A DNA stretch of 64,000 nt from Candidatus Schekmanbacteria bacterium RIFCSPLOWO2_02_FULL_38_14 (GCA_001790855.1 MGDH01000018.1:14207-78206); one strand, 5' to 3'. Counted from the stretch's first letter, positions 3,128 through 12,759 are shown. Made by a program: numbers and translations. Notes: generated by a model not told the origin, from the letters alone.

Positions 3128-4486
3128 ATGAATCCACAGATATTCAGGGAATATGACATAAGAGGGTTAGTTGATGTTGACTTGACTGAGGATATTGTTA
3201 CAAAAATAGGAGTTGGATTTGGTACATACATGGCAGTATCAGGTAAAAGAAAATTATCTGTTGGCTATGATATCAGGCTGAGTTCAGAGCGTTTTAAGGA
3301 TGCCCTCATCAAAGGGCTCACATCTGCTGGCTGCGATTGCATTAATATCGGAATGGTGCCAAGCCCTGTTCTTTATTTTTCCCTGTTTCATCTTGATGTT
3401 GACGGAGGTGTGATGATAACAGGCAGCCATAACCCTCCTGAGTTTAATGGACTGAAGCTATGCGATAACAAAACATCTCTTTATGGTGAAGAGATTCAGA
3501 GAGTCAGAAAAATCATCGAAGAAGGGAAATTCAGCAAAGGAAATGGAAATATCACTTCAAGAAATATAACTGAAGACTACATAGAGCTTATAAAAAATAA
3601 AATAAAGCTAAGAAGAAAGCTCAGGGTAGTTTTGGATGCAGGAAACGGAACAGCATCTTTAATAGCTCCAAAACTGATAAAAGGAATAGGCTGTGATGTA
3701 ACAGAGCTTTTCTGTGAACCTGATGGAAGATTCCCGAATCACCATCCTGACCCTACAGTTCCAAAATACCTGGAATCGCTCATTGCAACAGTAAAAAAAG
3801 AAAAAGCAGATGTTGGTATTGGGTATGACGGTGACGCTGATAGAATCGGTGTGATTGACGACAGGGGAGAAATAATATGGGGCGACCAGCTTCTTGTCAT
3901 ATTTTCAAGGGAAGTCCTGAAAAAAGGAAAAGCCCCTATTATCTTTGAAGTAAAATGCTCACAGGTGCTCAATGATGACATATTAAAACACGGAGGAATA
4001 CCAATAATGTGGAAGGCAGGGCATTCTCTTTTAAAGAGCAAGATGAAGGAAGAAAAATCTCCTCTTGGAGGTGAGATGAGCGGACATATGTTCTTTGCAG
4101 ATGGCTACTTTGGGTATGATGATGCAATCTATGCCTCATGCAGGCTTCTTGAAATCCTCTCAAATACAGATTTAAGGCTTTCTGAAATACTTAAAGACCT
4201 TCCAAAGATGTATAATACCCCTGAAATCCGTGTTAACTGCCCTGATGAAACAAAGTTCAGTGTTGTTGAAGATGTAAAAAAATATTTCAAGGAAAAATAT
4301 AAGACCATTGACATTGATGGTGTAAGAATAACCTTTGAAAACGGCTGGGGCCTTGTAAGGGCTTCAAACACACAGCCTGTTCTTGTCCTGAGGTTTGAAG
4401 CTGATTCCCAGAAGGCACTGGAAGAAATAAAAAAAATTGTCTTTGACAAACTGGCTCAGTATCCCGGAGTTTCAATCCCTGAATAA
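3128..4486 (+). CDS. phosphomannomutase/phosphoglucomutase (alpha-D-phosphohexomutase family)
   Basis: Active-site loop TGSHNPPEFNGLK, Mg loop GYDGDADR, sugar-binding GEMSGH; 452 aa. Confidence 0.85.
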   Translation: MNPQIFREYDIRGLVDVDLTEDIVTKIGVGFGTYMAVSGKRKLSVGYDIRLSSERFKDALIKGLTSAGCDCINIGMVPSPVLYFSLFHLDVDGGVMITGSHNPPEFNGLKLCDNKTSLYGEEIQRVRKIIEEGKFSKGNGNITSRNITEDYIELIKNKIKLRRKLRVVLDAGNGTASLIAPKLIKGIGCDVTELFCEPDGRFPNHHPDPTVPKYLESLIATVKKEKADVGIGYDGDADRIGVIDDRGEIIWGDQLLVIFSREVLKKGKAPIIFEVKCSQVLNDDILKHGGIPIMWKAGHSLLKSKMKEEKSPLGGEMSGHMFFADGYFGYDDAIYASCRLLEILSNTDLRLSEILKDLPKMYNTPEIRVNCPDETKFSVVEDVKKYFKEKYKTIDIDGVRITFENGWGLVRASNTQPVLVLRFEADSQKALEEIKKIVFDKLAQYPGVSIPE

Positions 4487-4669: not shown

Positions 4670-7393
4670 CTATCTGGATTTAGAAAAAAAGGATTTCAAC
4701 AGCTCTGATGCCAAATCTCTGTATATGCTGAATTCAAGCAATTCTGCCACTATTTCCTTATAGGATTTCTCTCCTGAAACAAAGTCATATATCAGCTTAT
4801 ACAGCTTTTCGTTTCTCTGGGATATGTGGATAATTCCATCAATTATATGGTAATTTGTTGATATATTGCAGAGCCTTCTCATTAAAATTCCGTGATAATA
4901 ATCTTCAGTCAAATCCATGCACTTATAGGCATATTCTGAAAAAGCCTTTCTTGAGAATCCGTATCTGTGCATTACCAGGGCAGCCCTTATTCCTGTAATC
5001 ATTGCAACATTAATTCCCTGGCTCTTAAACGGCTTCATCCATCCTGTTGCATCCCCAACAATAACATAGCGGTGGCCATATGTGTTTTTTGCGGCAGAAG
5101 TCGGGAATCTTCCCGCATAGTAATTTAACTGGCTCTTGTCATATTCCGGAAGCAGCGATTTTACCTGCGGCTGGTTTAAAAAAAAGTCCATGTCAAGGGA
5201 TGTCACATTCTTTCCTGCTATGTTAATTATTATGTGGTCACCCTTTGGACCAATAGCACCAAATTCCACTGTTGGAAGAGATGAAAGAAGAAAGGCAAAG
5301 ATTGAGTCATTAAATTTTTTATTGATAAATTCCGGGTCTGTATGAATTTTCGTGATAAAAGTCTTAAGATAACCTTTAGGCCTTTTGTATGGATAAAAGT
5401 TAGCAGTTGCATGTTCAAACTGATTCAGCATTGCCTCATCAAGCCCAAACGCACCAACCACAGCATCTGCCCTGAAATACTGGCTCTCGCAGTAAATCCT
5501 CACTTCATCATTGTTTGCAGTCCTTACAAATTCAACTCCGCTTACCCTGCTGTTAACAACCTCTACGCCAGTCTCCCTTGCCTTATCAAGAAGAAACCGG
5601 TCAAACTCAACCCTGCGGACAGTGTAATACCTCTTATCCCTGTTTTTCTGGTCAAGAAAAATTTCTTTTCTGCCGGAGCGAAGGACATATCCCTTTATAG
5701 TCCGTTTTATAAGCTCTTCAGGAAGGCTTATGCCTAACTCTTTTACGAGACACTCTTCAACCTTAGGAGAAAGAATCCCCATGCACTGATTATAATGAAA
5801 ATTGAAATCCTTTCCTTCAAATATAACAACCCTTATATTCTTGTTCTCTTTCTGTGCTTCAAGAAGCAGTTTTATTGCACAGCTTGCGCCGCTTGGTCCT
5901 CCGCCGATTATTGCAATTGTTGTTCCGTTTTCAATAAATGGAGGTTTCTCTCTTCCTGTTTTTACTGACTTGGGCTGAGTTGCAAAACCCCTTCCGTCAA
6001 AATCATATTCAGAAGCTTTGTCAAAGTCGATTTCCTTAGGTTTTTCTCCGGAAAGTTTCCTTGAAATTTCACTGATTTTTTTTAAAAGCGTCTTTAAAAG
6101 CTGCCAGACAAGTGTAAGCTGAAGCCTCGGGTCTAACCCCTTCCAGAAGATTTTCTTGTAAGGCATTTCTCCTGTAAAGAGATACCACAGGGTTTTGCTG
6201 AAAAACCTGACCTTTGGGGCAAGCTTTTCCTGCTCAAAATTTGCTATTGAGAACTGAAGCTCAGAGAAAAATGGGTGTGATGCTGCAAACTCATTTACTT
6301 TAAAGAGAAATTTCCCAAACCGGTTATCAAAAGAAAACATTTTTCTGCATCTTGGATAATAATATTTCTTAAATGCTTCTTTTGAAACACCATGCCTGAT
6401 TGCACTTTCAGCAGCAAAAAGAGAAGTATAAATCGCAGACTCAATTCCATTCTTTAAATACCTGCTGTCACAGGCATCACCAACCATTACAAGCCGTTTA
6501 TAAAAAGGAACCTTTGCAGCAGTAACAGGAATCTTTGGATGGCAGTGGCAACTTATTCTCCAGCCCTCTGGCAGATAGGCGCGAACCTCCTTGTAATCCA
6601 AGACCTCTTCAAGGGCTTTTATCTTCACATGCTCGCCAATAGCGCTTATTGTAACAAACCTTCCTTTAGGCGTGAAGGCTACAAACTTAACATTCTTCTC
6701 GCCAAGGGTAAATATGTGTATCATATCCCTGTGCCTGTCTTTTATAAATCCGGGCTCCACTTCTATCTCTGCCTGACATGCATGCCATGTTTCAGGAGGG
6801 AAATATCCGAAATCCCATTTCTTTGAAAGCCTGCTGTTCACACCAAAAGCCCCGACAACAAGGTCAACCTCTTCTGTCTTTGTCCCTTCTCTTAATTTAA
6901 TTAATGGCTTTTCACTATCTCTATCAGAAAGAATAATATTTTCTACAAGCTCAGGAACATGGTTGGCTCCTGATTTTATTGCGTTATCAAGCAGATATTT
7001 ATCAAAGCTTACATACTCATCAACACAGGGTTTTGGAGTGATTCCCCTGAAAACAGTATAGATTGGAGAAAAAGGGTCCTGAGGTATTGCAACAACCCTT
7101 TTGTTAGAGTGGAATGCATAACCTTTTACCTCGTGCCTTATGACTTTTGTCCCAAGAGGCATCCCTTCATTTTCAAGCCTTCTGTAAAGGTTGCTTCCAA
7201 TGACTCCGGCACACATATTGCAGTCCTTTGGAAGGTGGGTTGCAAAAGTCTTGCGGTCATAGATGTCAACCTTCAAGGCAATTCCGGTTTCTCTTGCAAA
7301 TTTTAAAATGAAATGAGCAAAAAAGCTTCCTGCGGGTCCCCCTCCGATTACTGCAATCTTAGAGCCGTTTTGAAGTTTTGTGTAAGGTTCCAT
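4670..7393 (-). CDS. large FAD-dependent oxidoreductase with two tandem FAD/NAD(P)-binding domains (geranylgeranyl-reductase/FixC-like)
   Basis: Two dinucleotide-binding motifs (KIAVIGGGPAGSFFA near the N-terminus; TIAIIGGGPSGASCA near residue 485); 907 aa; CNMCAGV in the first domain. Confidence 0.55.
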   Translation of the reverse strand: MEPYTKLQNGSKIAVIGGGPAGSFFAHFILKFARETGIALKVDIYDRKTFATHLPKDCNMCAGVIGSNLYRRLENEGMPLGTKVIRHEVKGYAFHSNKRVVAIPQDPFSPIYTVFRGITPKPCVDEYVSFDKYLLDNAIKSGANHVPELVENIILSDRDSEKPLIKLREGTKTEEVDLVVGAFGVNSRLSKKWDFGYFPPETWHACQAEIEVEPGFIKDRHRDMIHIFTLGEKNVKFVAFTPKGRFVTISAIGEHVKIKALEEVLDYKEVRAYLPEGWRISCHCHPKIPVTAAKVPFYKRLVMVGDACDSRYLKNGIESAIYTSLFAAESAIRHGVSKEAFKKYYYPRCRKMFSFDNRFGKFLFKVNEFAASHPFFSELQFSIANFEQEKLAPKVRFFSKTLWYLFTGEMPYKKIFWKGLDPRLQLTLVWQLLKTLLKKISEISRKLSGEKPKEIDFDKASEYDFDGRGFATQPKSVKTGREKPPFIENGTTIAIIGGGPSGASCAIKLLLEAQKENKNIRVVIFEGKDFNFHYNQCMGILSPKVEECLVKELGISLPEELIKRTIKGYVLRSGRKEIFLDQKNRDKRYYTVRRVEFDRFLLDKARETGVEVVNSRVSGVEFVRTANNDEVRIYCESQYFRADAVVGAFGLDEAMLNQFEHATANFYPYKRPKGYLKTFITKIHTDPEFINKKFNDSIFAFLLSSLPTVEFGAIGPKGDHIIINIAGKNVTSLDMDFFLNQPQVKSLLPEYDKSQLNYYAGRFPTSAAKNTYGHRYVIVGDATGWMKPFKSQGINVAMITGIRAALVMHRYGFSRKAFSEYAYKCMDLTEDYYHGILMRRLCNISTNYHIIDGIIHISQRNEKLYKLIYDFVSGEKSYKEIVAELLEFSIYRDLASELLKSFFSKSR

Positions 7394-10212: not shown

Positions 10213-11331
10213 TTATATATATTTAACAAAAAAATCTTTTAGCCCTTTCAGCTCTTCATATTTCTCAAGATTCTCCTTCACATATCTCAGTGTATCCGGG
10301 ATATACTGCAAATAGAAATCATTTCCTTTTCCCATTTTTTGAAAAGCAAATGTTCCTATGGCTTTAATGTTTCTCTGGACAGACATAAAATCAAATAATT
10401 TTCTAAACTCTTTTCTGTCTGTGTTGGTGCTGTAATGCTCATCAATCCTGAGAATATAATATTCTATAAGTCCATCCCTTAAAGAATCATCAAGAACCAC
10501 ATAAGAGTCCCTCAGCAGTGACGCAAGGTCATACTGGCAGAGTCCCATCCTTGCATCCTGAAAATCTACCATTGCAAGCTCATTGCCAACAACCATCAGG
10601 TTTCTTGAATGGTAATCCCTATGGGCAAAAACTCGTGGCTCTTGCGCAAGTTTCTGTGAAAGTTTTAAAAATTCATTATTTAAATTTATTAAATCATCAT
10701 TGCTGATTTCTGCCATAAGGAGACCTTCAAGGTAATGCTCTCTGAAAAAATTCAATTCAAACATAAATTTTTCAACATCGAATGACAGGGTAAAGGCTAT
10801 GCTTTTTGGCTTTTTTGGGATGGATGCTTTTACCTGCAAATGAACAAGAAGAGCAACTGCTTTTTCATAGAGGTTTTTTTTTCTTTTACCATCAAGAAAA
10901 GATAACCTCCTTTCCATAGTTTCATCACCCAGGTCCTCAAGCAAGAGGAATTTTTCATCTCCGTCAAAACCATATATCTCAGGAACCCTCAACCCTGATT
11001 TTTTCAGATGTTCCTGCACATCAATAAAGGAAAGATTTTTGCCTGAAAACCCTTCCTGCAGTTCCATTACAATTAATGACTTCTTTGCGCCTCCAGTTTT
11101 GTAGCTGTACCTGTAAAAAGAGCGGTCTGAAGCATCTCCTGGAAGTTTTTCAGTTTTCAGAGTCTCAATTTTCCCCTTATGGAGATTTTCAATAGCAAGC
11201 TTGATTTTCAAACTCATGGAAGGATTTATTTGTCCACAGACTTTTGTATTAATATAATCTTGAAGTTTATCTCTTTCCAATTGTAATTCAACTTGTTTTG
11301 AATTTATAAAAATATTTTTTTTATTATCCAT
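10213..11331 (-). CDS. APH/choline-kinase-family phosphotransferase
   Basis: Brenner motif HRDYHSRNLMV and VDFQDARMG (DFG-like) typical of the aminoglycoside phosphotransferase / ChoK / AmgK family; first gene of a kinase-MFS-MFS operon. Confidence 0.65.
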   Translation of the reverse strand: MDNKKNIFINSKQVELQLERDKLQDYINTKVCGQINPSMSLKIKLAIENLHKGKIETLKTEKLPGDASDRSFYRYSYKTGGAKKSLIVMELQEGFSGKNLSFIDVQEHLKKSGLRVPEIYGFDGDEKFLLLEDLGDETMERRLSFLDGKRKKNLYEKAVALLVHLQVKASIPKKPKSIAFTLSFDVEKFMFELNFFREHYLEGLLMAEISNDDLINLNNEFLKLSQKLAQEPRVFAHRDYHSRNLMVVGNELAMVDFQDARMGLCQYDLASLLRDSYVVLDDSLRDGLIEYYILRIDEHYSTNTDRKEFRKLFDFMSVQRNIKAIGTFAFQKMGKGNDFYLQYIPDTLRYVKENLEKYEELKGLKDFFVKYI

Positions 11332-11416
11332 AACTACACCTAACGACAGACATTACTCGCGAGTGTCCGAAGGGCGCAAGTTAGGTGCATGCCTTTATTA
11401 GATTTGCTTTTACATA

Positions 11417-12427
11417 CTAAATGATGTTGTCACTCTTTTTTCGATTACACTTCTCACACAGAAGTTCTATGTTTCTTGCAGTGTTACTTCCACCTTTTGA
11501 AACAGGTACCATATGGTCAAATTCTAACCTCTCTCGGCTTCCACATTTTACGCATGATCCATCATCACGTTTCCAGACGAATCTCTTTACTTCATCAGGA
11601 ATTCTTTGTCTATCAGGCTTTATACATTTCTCCTGAATAGGAATAGTATCATAGACCCTATCAATTAATTGTTCAGGTCTCCTCTTTATTAATTGTTCAA
11701 GTCTTCTCTTTCCATCTTTTTTTATAGAGAGTCCATGACTTGGCAGGATTGTATCAAAACTATAGTTCAACAACTTTGGTAGATTATCCCATGCCTTTTT
11801 GTAGGAAAAGCAAGACCATTCTGCTGAAAGGTTTAATTCCTCAGGTGCCATTTTAGGATTTAAAAGATTCTTCCCTAAAACTGTATCACCTGTAATAAGT
11901 ACCTTGTTTCGATAGAGCAAGCATATATTTCCTTTTGTATGCCCTTCAATGTGAATTATTCTTAAATCTTCATTAAAGAATTCATCATCTTTTAAACTGA
12001 TATCCACTTTACAGGGCGCAACATCAAAATGTTTTTGAAGCTCTTCAGGAACAAATTGAGGATTTGAAACCTTTTCTCTGCCTTCAATGAATGGTATGTC
12101 AGCGCTGTGTGCAGCAACAGGAACATTTAATTCTTCTTTAAGTTGGGCAAGGTTTCCTGTGTGGTCCCCATGGCAGTGAGTGCATATGATGACATCAACT
12201 TTGAACTTGTTTTTTTTCAAAAAGTTAAGGATTGTATGGTGAGAGCCCTTTTTAAAAAATTCAAATCCTCCTTCGCCAAAATTATATCCGTTTTTTGAAA
12301 GAAAATTCAAGACATCATTGTGCAATGGCTTTAGCCCGGTATCTACCAGTATCTTTTCAGACCCGTCTATATAAAATGCTTTTGTATTTGCCAGCTCAAT
12401 TTCATGGACACCATGAAAACTGTTCAT
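11417..12427 (-). CDS. fusion protein: N-terminal MBL-fold metallo-hydrolase plus C-terminal HNH endonuclease domain
   Basis: HCHGDHTGN (HxHxDH metal motif) near residue 85; C-terminal CVKCGSRERLEFDHMVPVSKGGSNTARNIELLCEKCN (HNH Cys4 and catalytic His). Confidence 0.7.
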   Translation of the reverse strand: MNSFHGVHEIELANTKAFYIDGSEKILVDTGLKPLHNDVLNFLSKNGYNFGEGGFEFFKKGSHHTILNFLKKNKFKVDVIICTHCHGDHTGNLAQLKEELNVPVAAHSADIPFIEGREKVSNPQFVPEELQKHFDVAPCKVDISLKDDEFFNEDLRIIHIEGHTKGNICLLYRNKVLITGDTVLGKNLLNPKMAPEELNLSAEWSCFSYKKAWDNLPKLLNYSFDTILPSHGLSIKKDGKRRLEQLIKRRPEQLIDRVYDTIPIQEKCIKPDRQRIPDEVKRFVWKRDDGSCVKCGSRERLEFDHMVPVSKGGSNTARNIELLCEKCNRKKSDNII

Positions 12428-12440
12428 TGCTCTCCCTCTT

Positions 12441-12478
12441 AAAAAATATCCCGTCCTGCAAAAAAATCAGGACGGGAT
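12441..12478 (-). terminator. rho-independent terminator (perfect 11-bp stem atcccgtcctg/caggacgggat) downstream of the 78-aa gene on the minus strand
   Basis: Stem-loop seen directly in sequence; reverse strand shows a T-run after the stem. Confidence 0.5.
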
Positions 12479-12522
12479 TATGTTTATATTCTTACTCTTA
12501 AATAATTGTTTTTCAACAATCA

Positions 12523-12759
12523 CTATTTTTTAATAAGAGGCTCAATTGATTTCATTGCCATAGCAAGAAAGGGCTTTGGTGTGATTTCCTTTACAACTTC
12601 AACAAGAATTTCAGGTGTTACTTTCCCGCCATCCCCGACTTTAGCAACAAGGGTTTCATTCGCTTTTTTTCTGGTCATTTCCTGAAAAGGTTTTGGTGAG
12701 CCGGAAATGAGTTTATCATAGATTTCTTTTGAGTTTCCTTCCCATGCGAATTCAGCCAT
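12523..12759 (-). CDS. small conserved hypothetical protein (78 aa)
   Basis: Clean ORF with its own terminator, co-directional with tusA-moeB; no confident family assignment. Confidence 0.4.
   Translation of the reverse strand: MAEFAWEGNSKEIYDKLISGSPKPFQEMTRKKANETLVAKVGDGGKVTPEILVEVVKEITPKPFLAMAMKSIEPLIKK

Follow-up and report, generated by a model that had tools for sequence, protein, structure and literature searches.

An HNH nuclease tail on a metallo-beta-lactamase-fold hydrolase of Candidatus Schekmanbacteria and its origin by a lineage-specific insertion

When two catalytic domains meet in a single protein in an uncommon combination, does the pairing point to a function of its own, or is it an accident of gene history? 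The question is raised by a gene in a 64-kb stretch of DNA from Candidatus Schekmanbacteria bacterium RIFCSPLOWO2_02_FULL_38_14 (GCA_001790855.1 MGDH01000018.1:14207-78206; hereinafter the window, all positions being those of the whole stretch). The gene (11417..12427, minus strand) is an open reading frame (ORF) for 336 amino acids (aa) plus stop that joins an N-terminal metallo-beta-lactamase (MBL) fold domain to a C-terminal HNH endonuclease domain. An earlier note on this DNA had taken both domains for nucleic-acid-processing folds and proposed a role in end processing or defense. The analysis presented here points to a different answer, namely that the two domains form a new combination, most likely an incidental one. 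A 433-bp segment was inserted where the 3' end of the MBL gene overlapped the ribosome-binding site and start of a neighboring APH-family gene.

The single ORF that had been described, with its strand left unstated, is confirmed by the ORF listing of the window and by Pfam. It starts with ATG and runs continuously from the MBL domain into the HNH domain, and both domains score far above the gathering cut-offs: Lactamase_B (PF00753) at residues 17-192 (E 1.6e-19, 71.1 bits against 22.7) and HNH (PF01844) at residues 292-333 (E 1.3e-12, 48.1 bits against 21.4), with a second HNH model, PF14279, reaching 37.7 bits against 27.5. The HNH part lacks a separate start codon. An exact look-up retrieved the identical 336-aa product from 18 contigs in ENA and Logan assemblies, from at least 5 samples and in a constant gene context; the fetched loci that carry the chimera are 99.5-100% identical to the window, with zero differences within the gene, and a Joint Genome Institute (JGI) contig retrieved with a degenerate junction pattern is 100% identical to window positions 11435-12670. 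The protein is deposited at NCBI as OGL41401.1, OGL50222.1 and OGL55467.1 ('hypothetical protein, Candidatus Schekmanbacteria bacterium GWA2_38_9') and carries the UniRef label 'HNH nuclease domain-containing protein'. The chimeric gene is genuine and fixed in one population of a groundwater bacterium, Candidatus Schekmanbacteria of the GWA2_38_9 type.

The origin of the fusion emerges from comparison with three relatives, L002 (a Logan contig), L001 (a JGI contig) and L007 (Schekmanbacteria GWA2_38_11), all of which retain the order of a 78-aa ORF, the MBL gene and the APH-family gene; the upstream ArgC-ThiF-TusA genes are also present in L002, as in the window. The ancestral MBL portion of the chimera (residues 1-247; 11687..12427, minus) is collinear with the HNH-less orthologs and shows 75-85% nucleotide identity to the three relatives, with the blastn match stopping exactly at 11687. 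Homology resumes at 11253 in L001 and L002 and at 11279 in L007, and the subject coordinates overlap at the break. The homology break together with the overlapping subject coordinates therefore delineates a lineage-specific insertion of 433 bp in the window (11254..11686, minus) that is absent from L001, L002 and L007. In composition, the insertion resembles its host: the GC content (35.1%) equals that of the host gene, and the GC content at third codon positions (GC3) is 29% versus 30%.

In the coding orientation, the end of the host gene is followed by a tandem copy of the target, 251 nt of donor-derived sequence, an 85-nt spacer, a Shine-Dalgarno-like TAGGTG with an ATG and 26 codons, a third target copy and a relic of the MBL gene, all on the minus strand. 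The left, original copy of the ~30-bp target, GATGGAAAGAGAAGACTTGAACAATTAATA (11687..11716), was delimited by blastn, a repeat search (the 10-mer of repeat D3 at 11705-11714) and alignment. The tandem second copy of 24 nt, AAGAGGAGACCTGAACAATTAATT (11663..11686; repeat family D1, 83% identity, aligned to the ancestral target), encodes residues K248-I255, with KRRPEQLI coming after KRRLEQLI. The donor-derived fragment (11420..11670), recognized by homology to the gene for the protein P0036 and to Gmet_0936, encodes a linker and a complete minimal HNH domain of the HNN type (residues ~254-336), and the 85-nt spacer that came in with the insert (11332..11416) shows no homology to the P0036 locus L003 or to the relatives. 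The segment that begins with the ATG after TAGGTG (11254..11331) enters the APH-family gene in frame, as established by the ORF listing and start-codon analysis. The right, degenerate target copy, AATTGGAAAGAGATAAACTTCAAGATTATATTAATA (11247..11282), forms the last of the 26 codons and ends in the 7-bp ATTAATA common to the left junction. It shares with the left copy the exact 10-mer TGGAAAGAGA (11270-11279; repeat D3), its alignment score was reached by only 3 of 5000 shuffles, and the L007 alignment, ending at 11279, extends into it. Immediately after it comes the old 3' end of the MBL gene, TTA ATA CAA AAG TCT GTG GAC AAA TAA, or LIQKSVDK* (11226..11252), as read from the sequence. The corresponding C-termini of the HNH-less proteins P0001-P0004 are LIQKSIQK* or LIQKTIQK*; four closely syntenic HNH-less relatives end in "...LEQLIQKSIQK*", and the closest relatives (85-86% aa identity, such as Schekmanbacteria RBG_16_38_10) terminate in '...KRRLEQLIQQTVQK*'. 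All but the last 6 residues of the hydrolase are retained, and its frame continues without a break into the HNH domain. Because orthologs at all distances lack HNH and the relic tail with its stop codon survives behind the insert, insertion is the only parsimonious direction, and loss of the HNH by deletion in the relatives is rejected.

The insert comprises the last ~83 codons of a gene of a distinct donor family, 85 nt that are presumably the 3' flank of the donor gene, and the first codons of another ORF. The 251-nt donor fragment is 76.6% identical in DNA to the 3' end of the P0036 gene (L003/L004), ending at the stop codon, and the linker and HNH are 75-77% identical in protein to the donor family. 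The linker, 'LIDRVYDTIPIQEK..PDRQRIPDEVK', matches the family motif '[LM][VI]DR[VI]NDPI...P.RERIPD', which is found in P0036, P0037, P0042-48, P0062, P0114, P0127, P0137, P0138, P0146, P0163 and P0165; the DR.NDPI linker is specific to this family. The members examined have a CxxC zinc ribbon at the N-terminus, a 'PIRLKRNE...LTNQRLF' region that weakly matches bPH_3, or both. The chimera has only the linker and HNH in common with them, its N-terminal 247 residues being MBL, and is a derivative of the family rather than a member. Given that only the last ~83 codons are present, the donor sequence is a truncated gene fragment rather than a cassette with natural edges. At the left breakpoint, the host (E-Q-L-I) resembles the donor (E-L-V/I-D) over a short stretch, and this similarity, along with the target duplications, fits a microhomology-mediated, template-switch type of insertion, by which the fusion would have originated.

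The donor family is in itself a sizeable, uncharacterized nuclease family without annotation or PADLOC assignment; its proteins yielded no credible PADLOC family, only generic HNH-motif matches. As to the insert, a near-palindrome, AGACCTGAACAATTAATTGATAGGGTCT (11653-11680; repeat I2), with 16-nt arms that are 81% complementary, sits at the left junction exactly where host-derived meets donor-derived sequence; it could be there by chance or have relevance to the recombination event. The spacer, otherwise ~31% GC, contains a GC-rich, imperfect hairpin (~11345-11395; CACCTAAC...GTTAGGTG enclosing CTCGCGAG). The spacer RNA folds no better than shuffles (z = -0.25), JGI metagenomes gave 0 exact matches to the 25-nt hairpin core, and neither the hairpin nor the HNH has a second copy within the window. 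ARAGORN detected no tRNA or transfer-messenger RNA marking an integration site, the promoter and terminator scan returned nothing above shuffle expectation, and Rfam gave no RNA in the whole window at gathering and only noise in a permissive scan of the insert. When compared with all fetched loci, the right-hand 163 bp and its 26-aa peptide produced only an AT-rich 40-nt match in L009. This segment (3243-3282), located just after the HNH stop of a deltaproteobacterial gene, is 82.5% identical to the window at about 11290-11325, which is probably low-complexity chance.

The site of insertion accounts for the survival of both flanking genes. In the HNH-less relatives, and hence in the ancestor, the MBL and APH-family genes overlap, the former with its 3' end and the latter with its 5' end; the overlap region corresponds to window positions 11247-11260 and 11687-11716, and to ~4150-4260 in L002, ~3714-3800 in L007 and ~10720-10830 in L001. 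ATG, GTG and TTG are all missing from the APH-frame ORF of L002 and L007 upstream of the conserved and essential GDASDR motif, and a conserved ATT is found 9 nt after the Shine-Dalgarno-like AAGAGGAG, itself encoded within the MBL 'KRR' codons. This arrangement suggests that the APH-family gene of the relatives uses a non-canonical AUU start, and the target holds the MBL C-terminus together with the probable APH ribosome-binding site and start. Because the target was duplicated and a new Shine-Dalgarno and in-frame ATG were brought in, both genes were left with open frames. The idea that the relatives link MBL and APH by programmed -1 frameshifting was discarded, as the A-run is not conserved. 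Gene callers place the APH-family starts in the relatives too far downstream; on the public contigs of the chimera, they start the 372-aa APH product at ATG 11331.

The APH-family kinase-like gene (10213..11331, minus; Pfam APH E 4.6e-23, along with synteny and start-codon analysis) is the downstream neighbor of the chimera, and a conserved 78-aa ORF without a Pfam hit (12523..12759, minus; also L001 9588-9824 and L002 2992-3228) lies immediately upstream of it. The trio of the 78-aa ORF, MBL and APH-like genes appears to be a conserved Schekmanbacteria module. The gene was previously placed between transporter and sulfur-relay genes; two MFS transporters and TusA/ThiF are indeed nearby, but one step beyond these immediate neighbors. 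The remark that the gene has no partner holds as well, in that none arrived with the HNH and the flanking genes, housekeeping in kind, all occur in relatives without it as well. Elsewhere in the window, a 907-aa ORF (4670-7393, minus) shows FAD-binding and halogenase-like matches only at residues ~490-816; the N-terminal ~490 residues before them match no Pfam family at E up to 0.001.

The rarity of the architecture, likewise pointed out before, is borne out by two very large searches. Among 5.8e9 clusters, the 35 best matches to the chimera are MBL-only proteins of 251-263 aa with 44-86% identity, and the remaining listed matches are HNH-only, unrelated proteins that end in the HNH. Among 1.84e9 representatives, no protein with both domains ranks between the MBL-only and the HNH-only matches. 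Any protein with this HNH subtype would outrank the HNH-only proteins if it matched the MBL domain even weakly, and no other protein of this kind stands above them in either library; more distant MBL+HNH pairs could rank lower. The 'two-stretch' matches P0123, P0124, P0125 and P0179 were rejected as MBL+HNH proteins given that the HNH is matched twice and there is no MBL domain. No description of an MBL-HNH fusion was found in the searchable literature. Judging from these searches, the fusion appears to be confined to one species. The ~60-aa HNH module is highly promiscuous across bacterial and archaeal phyla, where the sequence matches show it behind many unrelated N-termini. In P0059, P0061, P0097, P0107, P0111, P0208 and P0219, a RuvB-like AAA+ ATPase, sometimes after Cys-rich repeats, is joined to the same HNH subtype, with 75-78% identity over the module.

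The premise that both domains are nucleic-acid-processing folds is unsupported because both the sequence and the fold of the MBL part match glyoxalase-II-like hydrolases, and no features of beta-CASP proteins, RNase Z or RNase J are found. The membership of this portion in the MBL superfamily is apparent from the Pfam score above gathering and from five metal-binding motifs (VDTG 28-31, H84-C-H86-G-D88-H89, EGH163, TGD181 and PSH231), with a complete set of metal ligands (D29, H84/H86/D88/H89, H163, D181 and H231). Its sequence matches are glyoxalase-II-like and class-B-type small-molecule hydrolases, all far under the equivalog cut-offs: the GloB models TIGR03413 and NF007597 give 47.2 bits against 200.8 and 24 against 421, respectively. 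In the PDB, the sequence matches are GloB, TTHA1623 and glyoxalase II. The AlphaFold2 model of the chimera has a mean predicted local distance difference test (pLDDT) score of 88.3, with values above 90 in the MBL region, which adopts the alpha-beta/beta-alpha fold, and Foldseek matches it to GloB 7l0b, Ava_3068, ST1585, TTHA1623/1429, YcbL, LACTB2 and B3 lactamases. None of the 50 Foldseek PDB matches listed is a beta-CASP protein, RNase J or RNase Z, there is no Beta-Casp or RMMBL Pfam match in the chimera at E up to 1, and the RNase J1 model gives 22.6 bits against a cut-off of 820, over residues 68-116 only. The MBL part is thus predicted to be a glyoxalase-II-like small-molecule hydrolase and not a beta-CASP nuclease. 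With a ratio of nonsynonymous to synonymous substitution rates (dN/dS) of 0.07 relative to L002 (dS 0.84), it is under strong purifying selection.

The HNH tail is likewise well preserved, and neither a split gene nor dead active sites, the two findings that the earlier note named as refuting it, were found. The scores exceed the gathering cut-offs, the motifs C292xxC295, D304-H305, N319 and C324xxC327-N328 are present, all residues of the Cys4 zinc site and of the D-H/N/N set are kept, and the catalytic and zinc residues align with those of Gmet_0936, a minimal zinc-ribbon HNH (HNN) endonuclease of Geobacter metallireducens. Residues 261-332 of the chimera align with residues 5-81 of this 112-aa protein (4h9d; E 1.4e-6), C38/C41/C73/C76 and D53/H54/N68/N77 corresponding to the Cys4 and D-H...N...N residues of the chimera. 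In Gmet_0936, these residues bind zinc or are needed for Mn-dependent nicking, and the activity is weak (PMC3765158). The AlphaFold2 model contains helices at 239-248 and 251-255, a stretch at 263-272 with pLDDT below 50 and an HNH module with pLDDT of 67-89; no interface between the MBL and HNH domains is evident in it. According to this model, the two domains would be independent and joined by a flexible, disordered tether of ~25 residues. Wider affiliations of the HNH find little support. The IscB/Cas9 model NF040563 gives 45.5 bits against 175, over the HNH segment only, and RuvC is absent; the best PADLOC-DB v2 match has E 1.7e-4, with only the HNH motif matched. A phage or viral origin is rejected because phage HNH records are less than 60% identical and one viral contig 69% (range 54-69%), more distant than the cellular relatives.

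With these data, the fusion is, with fair probability, a lineage-specific incidental capture that left two independent modules. Under this scenario, the MBL domain would keep its ancestral small-molecule hydrolase role within the 78-aa/MBL/APH trio, and the HNH tail would be a complete minimal beta-beta-alpha-metal nuclease module, translated only within the fusion because it has no internal start. Given that the N-terminal domains of the donor are missing, the tail would probably be at most a weak, untargeted, divalent-metal-dependent DNA nickase, by analogy with Gmet_0936, and would not be mechanistically coupled to the hydrolase.

Several considerations weigh against this scenario. The activity of both domains is predicted, and with no donor locus found, the template-switch mechanism is inferred from the junctions alone. 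Human LACTB2, a glyoxalase-II-like MBL protein, is an RNase; with LACTB2 among the fold matches, a nucleic-acid substrate can be envisaged for the MBL part. The insert is in frame with both flanking genes, which would occur by chance in about 1 case in 9, and there may be selection beyond tolerance. Finally, the intact tail, set against the decayed right target copy, weakly suggests selection and possibly an integrated function. The 83-codon AT-rich tail has acquired no stop and no frameshift, whereas the target copies have diverged, the tandem pair to 83% identity and the right copy with mismatches and two indels in ~30 nt; this argument draws on about 30 nt and assumes that the copies were initially identical. 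In favor of an intact HNH domain, its differences from the donor family, at 6 of the 48 columns with at least 90% conservation, are within the range of bona fide members, which have 0-8. Three of the six are conservative (R>K, I>M, I>V), two derive from the junction and one belongs to the linker. The dN/dS of 0.12 between the HNH and P0036 spans the history before and after the insertion and is not assignable to the post-insertion branch.

The same observations bear on the best surviving alternative, which we regard as unlikely though tenable: that the HNH tail is a mere passenger, neutral or slightly deleterious, without a nuclease role in vivo, and persists because the event is recent. The tail is limited to one near-clonal population, it is a truncated fragment deprived of the N-terminal domains of the donor family, the characterized minimal homolog is only weakly active, and no partner or immunity gene is present around the locus. 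However, a passenger would not be expected to be free of stops, frameshifts and radical changes at family-invariant positions, and both the divergence of the target copies, which suggests a non-trivial age, and a GC3 equal to that of the host speak against a recent event.

It is improbable that the chimera is an integrated bifunctional nucleic-acid-processing or defense enzyme, in which both domains act on DNA or RNA or the HNH is gated by an MBL domain serving as a small-molecule sensor. In its favor, neither active site is damaged and the reading frame is kept, certain glyoxalase-II-like MBLs such as LACTB2 cleave RNA, and HNH domains are common defense effectors, even if the PADLOC matches are weak. 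But the MBL has no beta-CASP domain and its orthologs, in conserved synteny, are hydrolases of a housekeeping type without HNH, no credible PADLOC family is recognized, and there is neither a defense-island context nor a co-acquired gene. The architecture is absent elsewhere among the top matches of the two libraries, and the linker is predicted to be disordered with no sign of a domain interface. Nothing speaks for a concerted role in end processing or defense, as put forward in the earlier note; the fusion is found in one species only and still bears the traces of the 433-bp insertion that brought in a truncated gene fragment. A related possibility, which we consider quite improbable, is that the tail has been selected and co-opted, such that the MBL domain or the 78-aa/MBL/APH module controls the tethered nuclease as a small-molecule-gated DNA nickase involved in defense, toxicity or repair. 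If this were the case, such a hydrolase-regulated tail would represent a very young effector-sensor fusion whose origin is still readable in the DNA, and would be worth biochemical study.

More doubtful still is a selfish, homing-type HNH element that inserts at gene ends and is expressed through the host gene. The exact position of the insertion at a gene boundary, the flanking target duplication, the near-palindrome at the left junction and the occurrence of near-identical HNH modules at the C-termini of many unrelated proteins from very different phyla would all be in line with such an element. Nevertheless, the edge of the fragment falls inside a larger conserved family architecture rather than at a natural cassette edge, the sequence past the stop codon is common to no relative, and DNA-targeting domains typical of homing enzymes are lacking. 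Furthermore, there is a single copy within the window, the only part of the genome covered, the metagenome scan gave no exact match to the 25-nt hairpin core, and the HNHs of phages (below 60%) and viruses (69%) stand further away. The weakest alternative, an assembly chimera or a sequencing frameshift joining two genes, draws on the prior that fusions from a single metagenome-assembled genome can be spurious and has a negligible probability: such an artifact is excluded because the same product, with its junction, recurs in 18 independently assembled contigs (ENA, Logan, NCBI) at 99.5-100% locus identity and in a JGI contig, host sequence is syntenic on either side of the insert, and the repeats that flank the insert have diverged and therefore are not collapsed assembler repeats.

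Incidental capture thus remains the preferred reading. Both domains are well known and the sequence was already public, so that the novelty lies in the documented origin: the event that created the gene can be read base by base, from the truncated donor fragment through the duplicated target to the relic stop codon. The duplicated target kept the upstream frame open and gave the downstream gene an in-frame start. The locus offers what seems to be a clear case, from an uncultivated phylum, of domain accretion in nature through templated insertion, and cautions that a rare domain pair alone is a poor guide to function.

In comparison with known systems, the chimera resembles a glyoxalase-II-like hydrolase combined with a minimal HNH of the Gmet_0936 kind; it belongs to the MBL and HNH superfamilies, but not to GloB, the beta-CASP nucleases, IscB/Cas9, the PADLOC systems or the donor family. 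With the beta-CASP MBL nucleases (RNase J, CPSF73, Artemis/SNM1) and RNase Z, it has only the generic MBL HxHxDH motif in common, the MBL part lacking the beta-CASP insertion domain, RMMBL and any matching Pfam, NCBIfam or fold assignment. With homing endonuclease genes and phage HNH proteins, it shares HNH chemistry and insertion at a gene boundary with a duplicated target, but the tail has no start codon or promoter of its own, is a truncated fragment and occurs in a single copy within the window, and no shared element ends were found. In contrast to Gmet_0936, which is a free-standing dimer, the HNH of the chimera, known from its sequence, is tethered to an enzyme. Of the ~280-390 codons of the zinc-ribbon/bacterial-PH-like/HNH family, the chimera keeps only the final ~83, with an unrelated MBL in place of the zinc ribbon and the middle domain. 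The closest counterparts of the MBL part in sequence and structure are the glyoxalase-II-like hydrolases (GloB 7l0b, YcbL 2xf4, TTHA1623 2zwr, Ava_3068 2p97 and ST1585 3adr), with which the chimera shares the fold and all metal ligands and whose size is consistent with that of the ancestral MBL protein (about 253 aa); it differs from them in that it is not a GloB equivalog, carries 89 additional C-terminal residues and sits in the trio with the 78-aa ORF and the APH-kinase-like gene.

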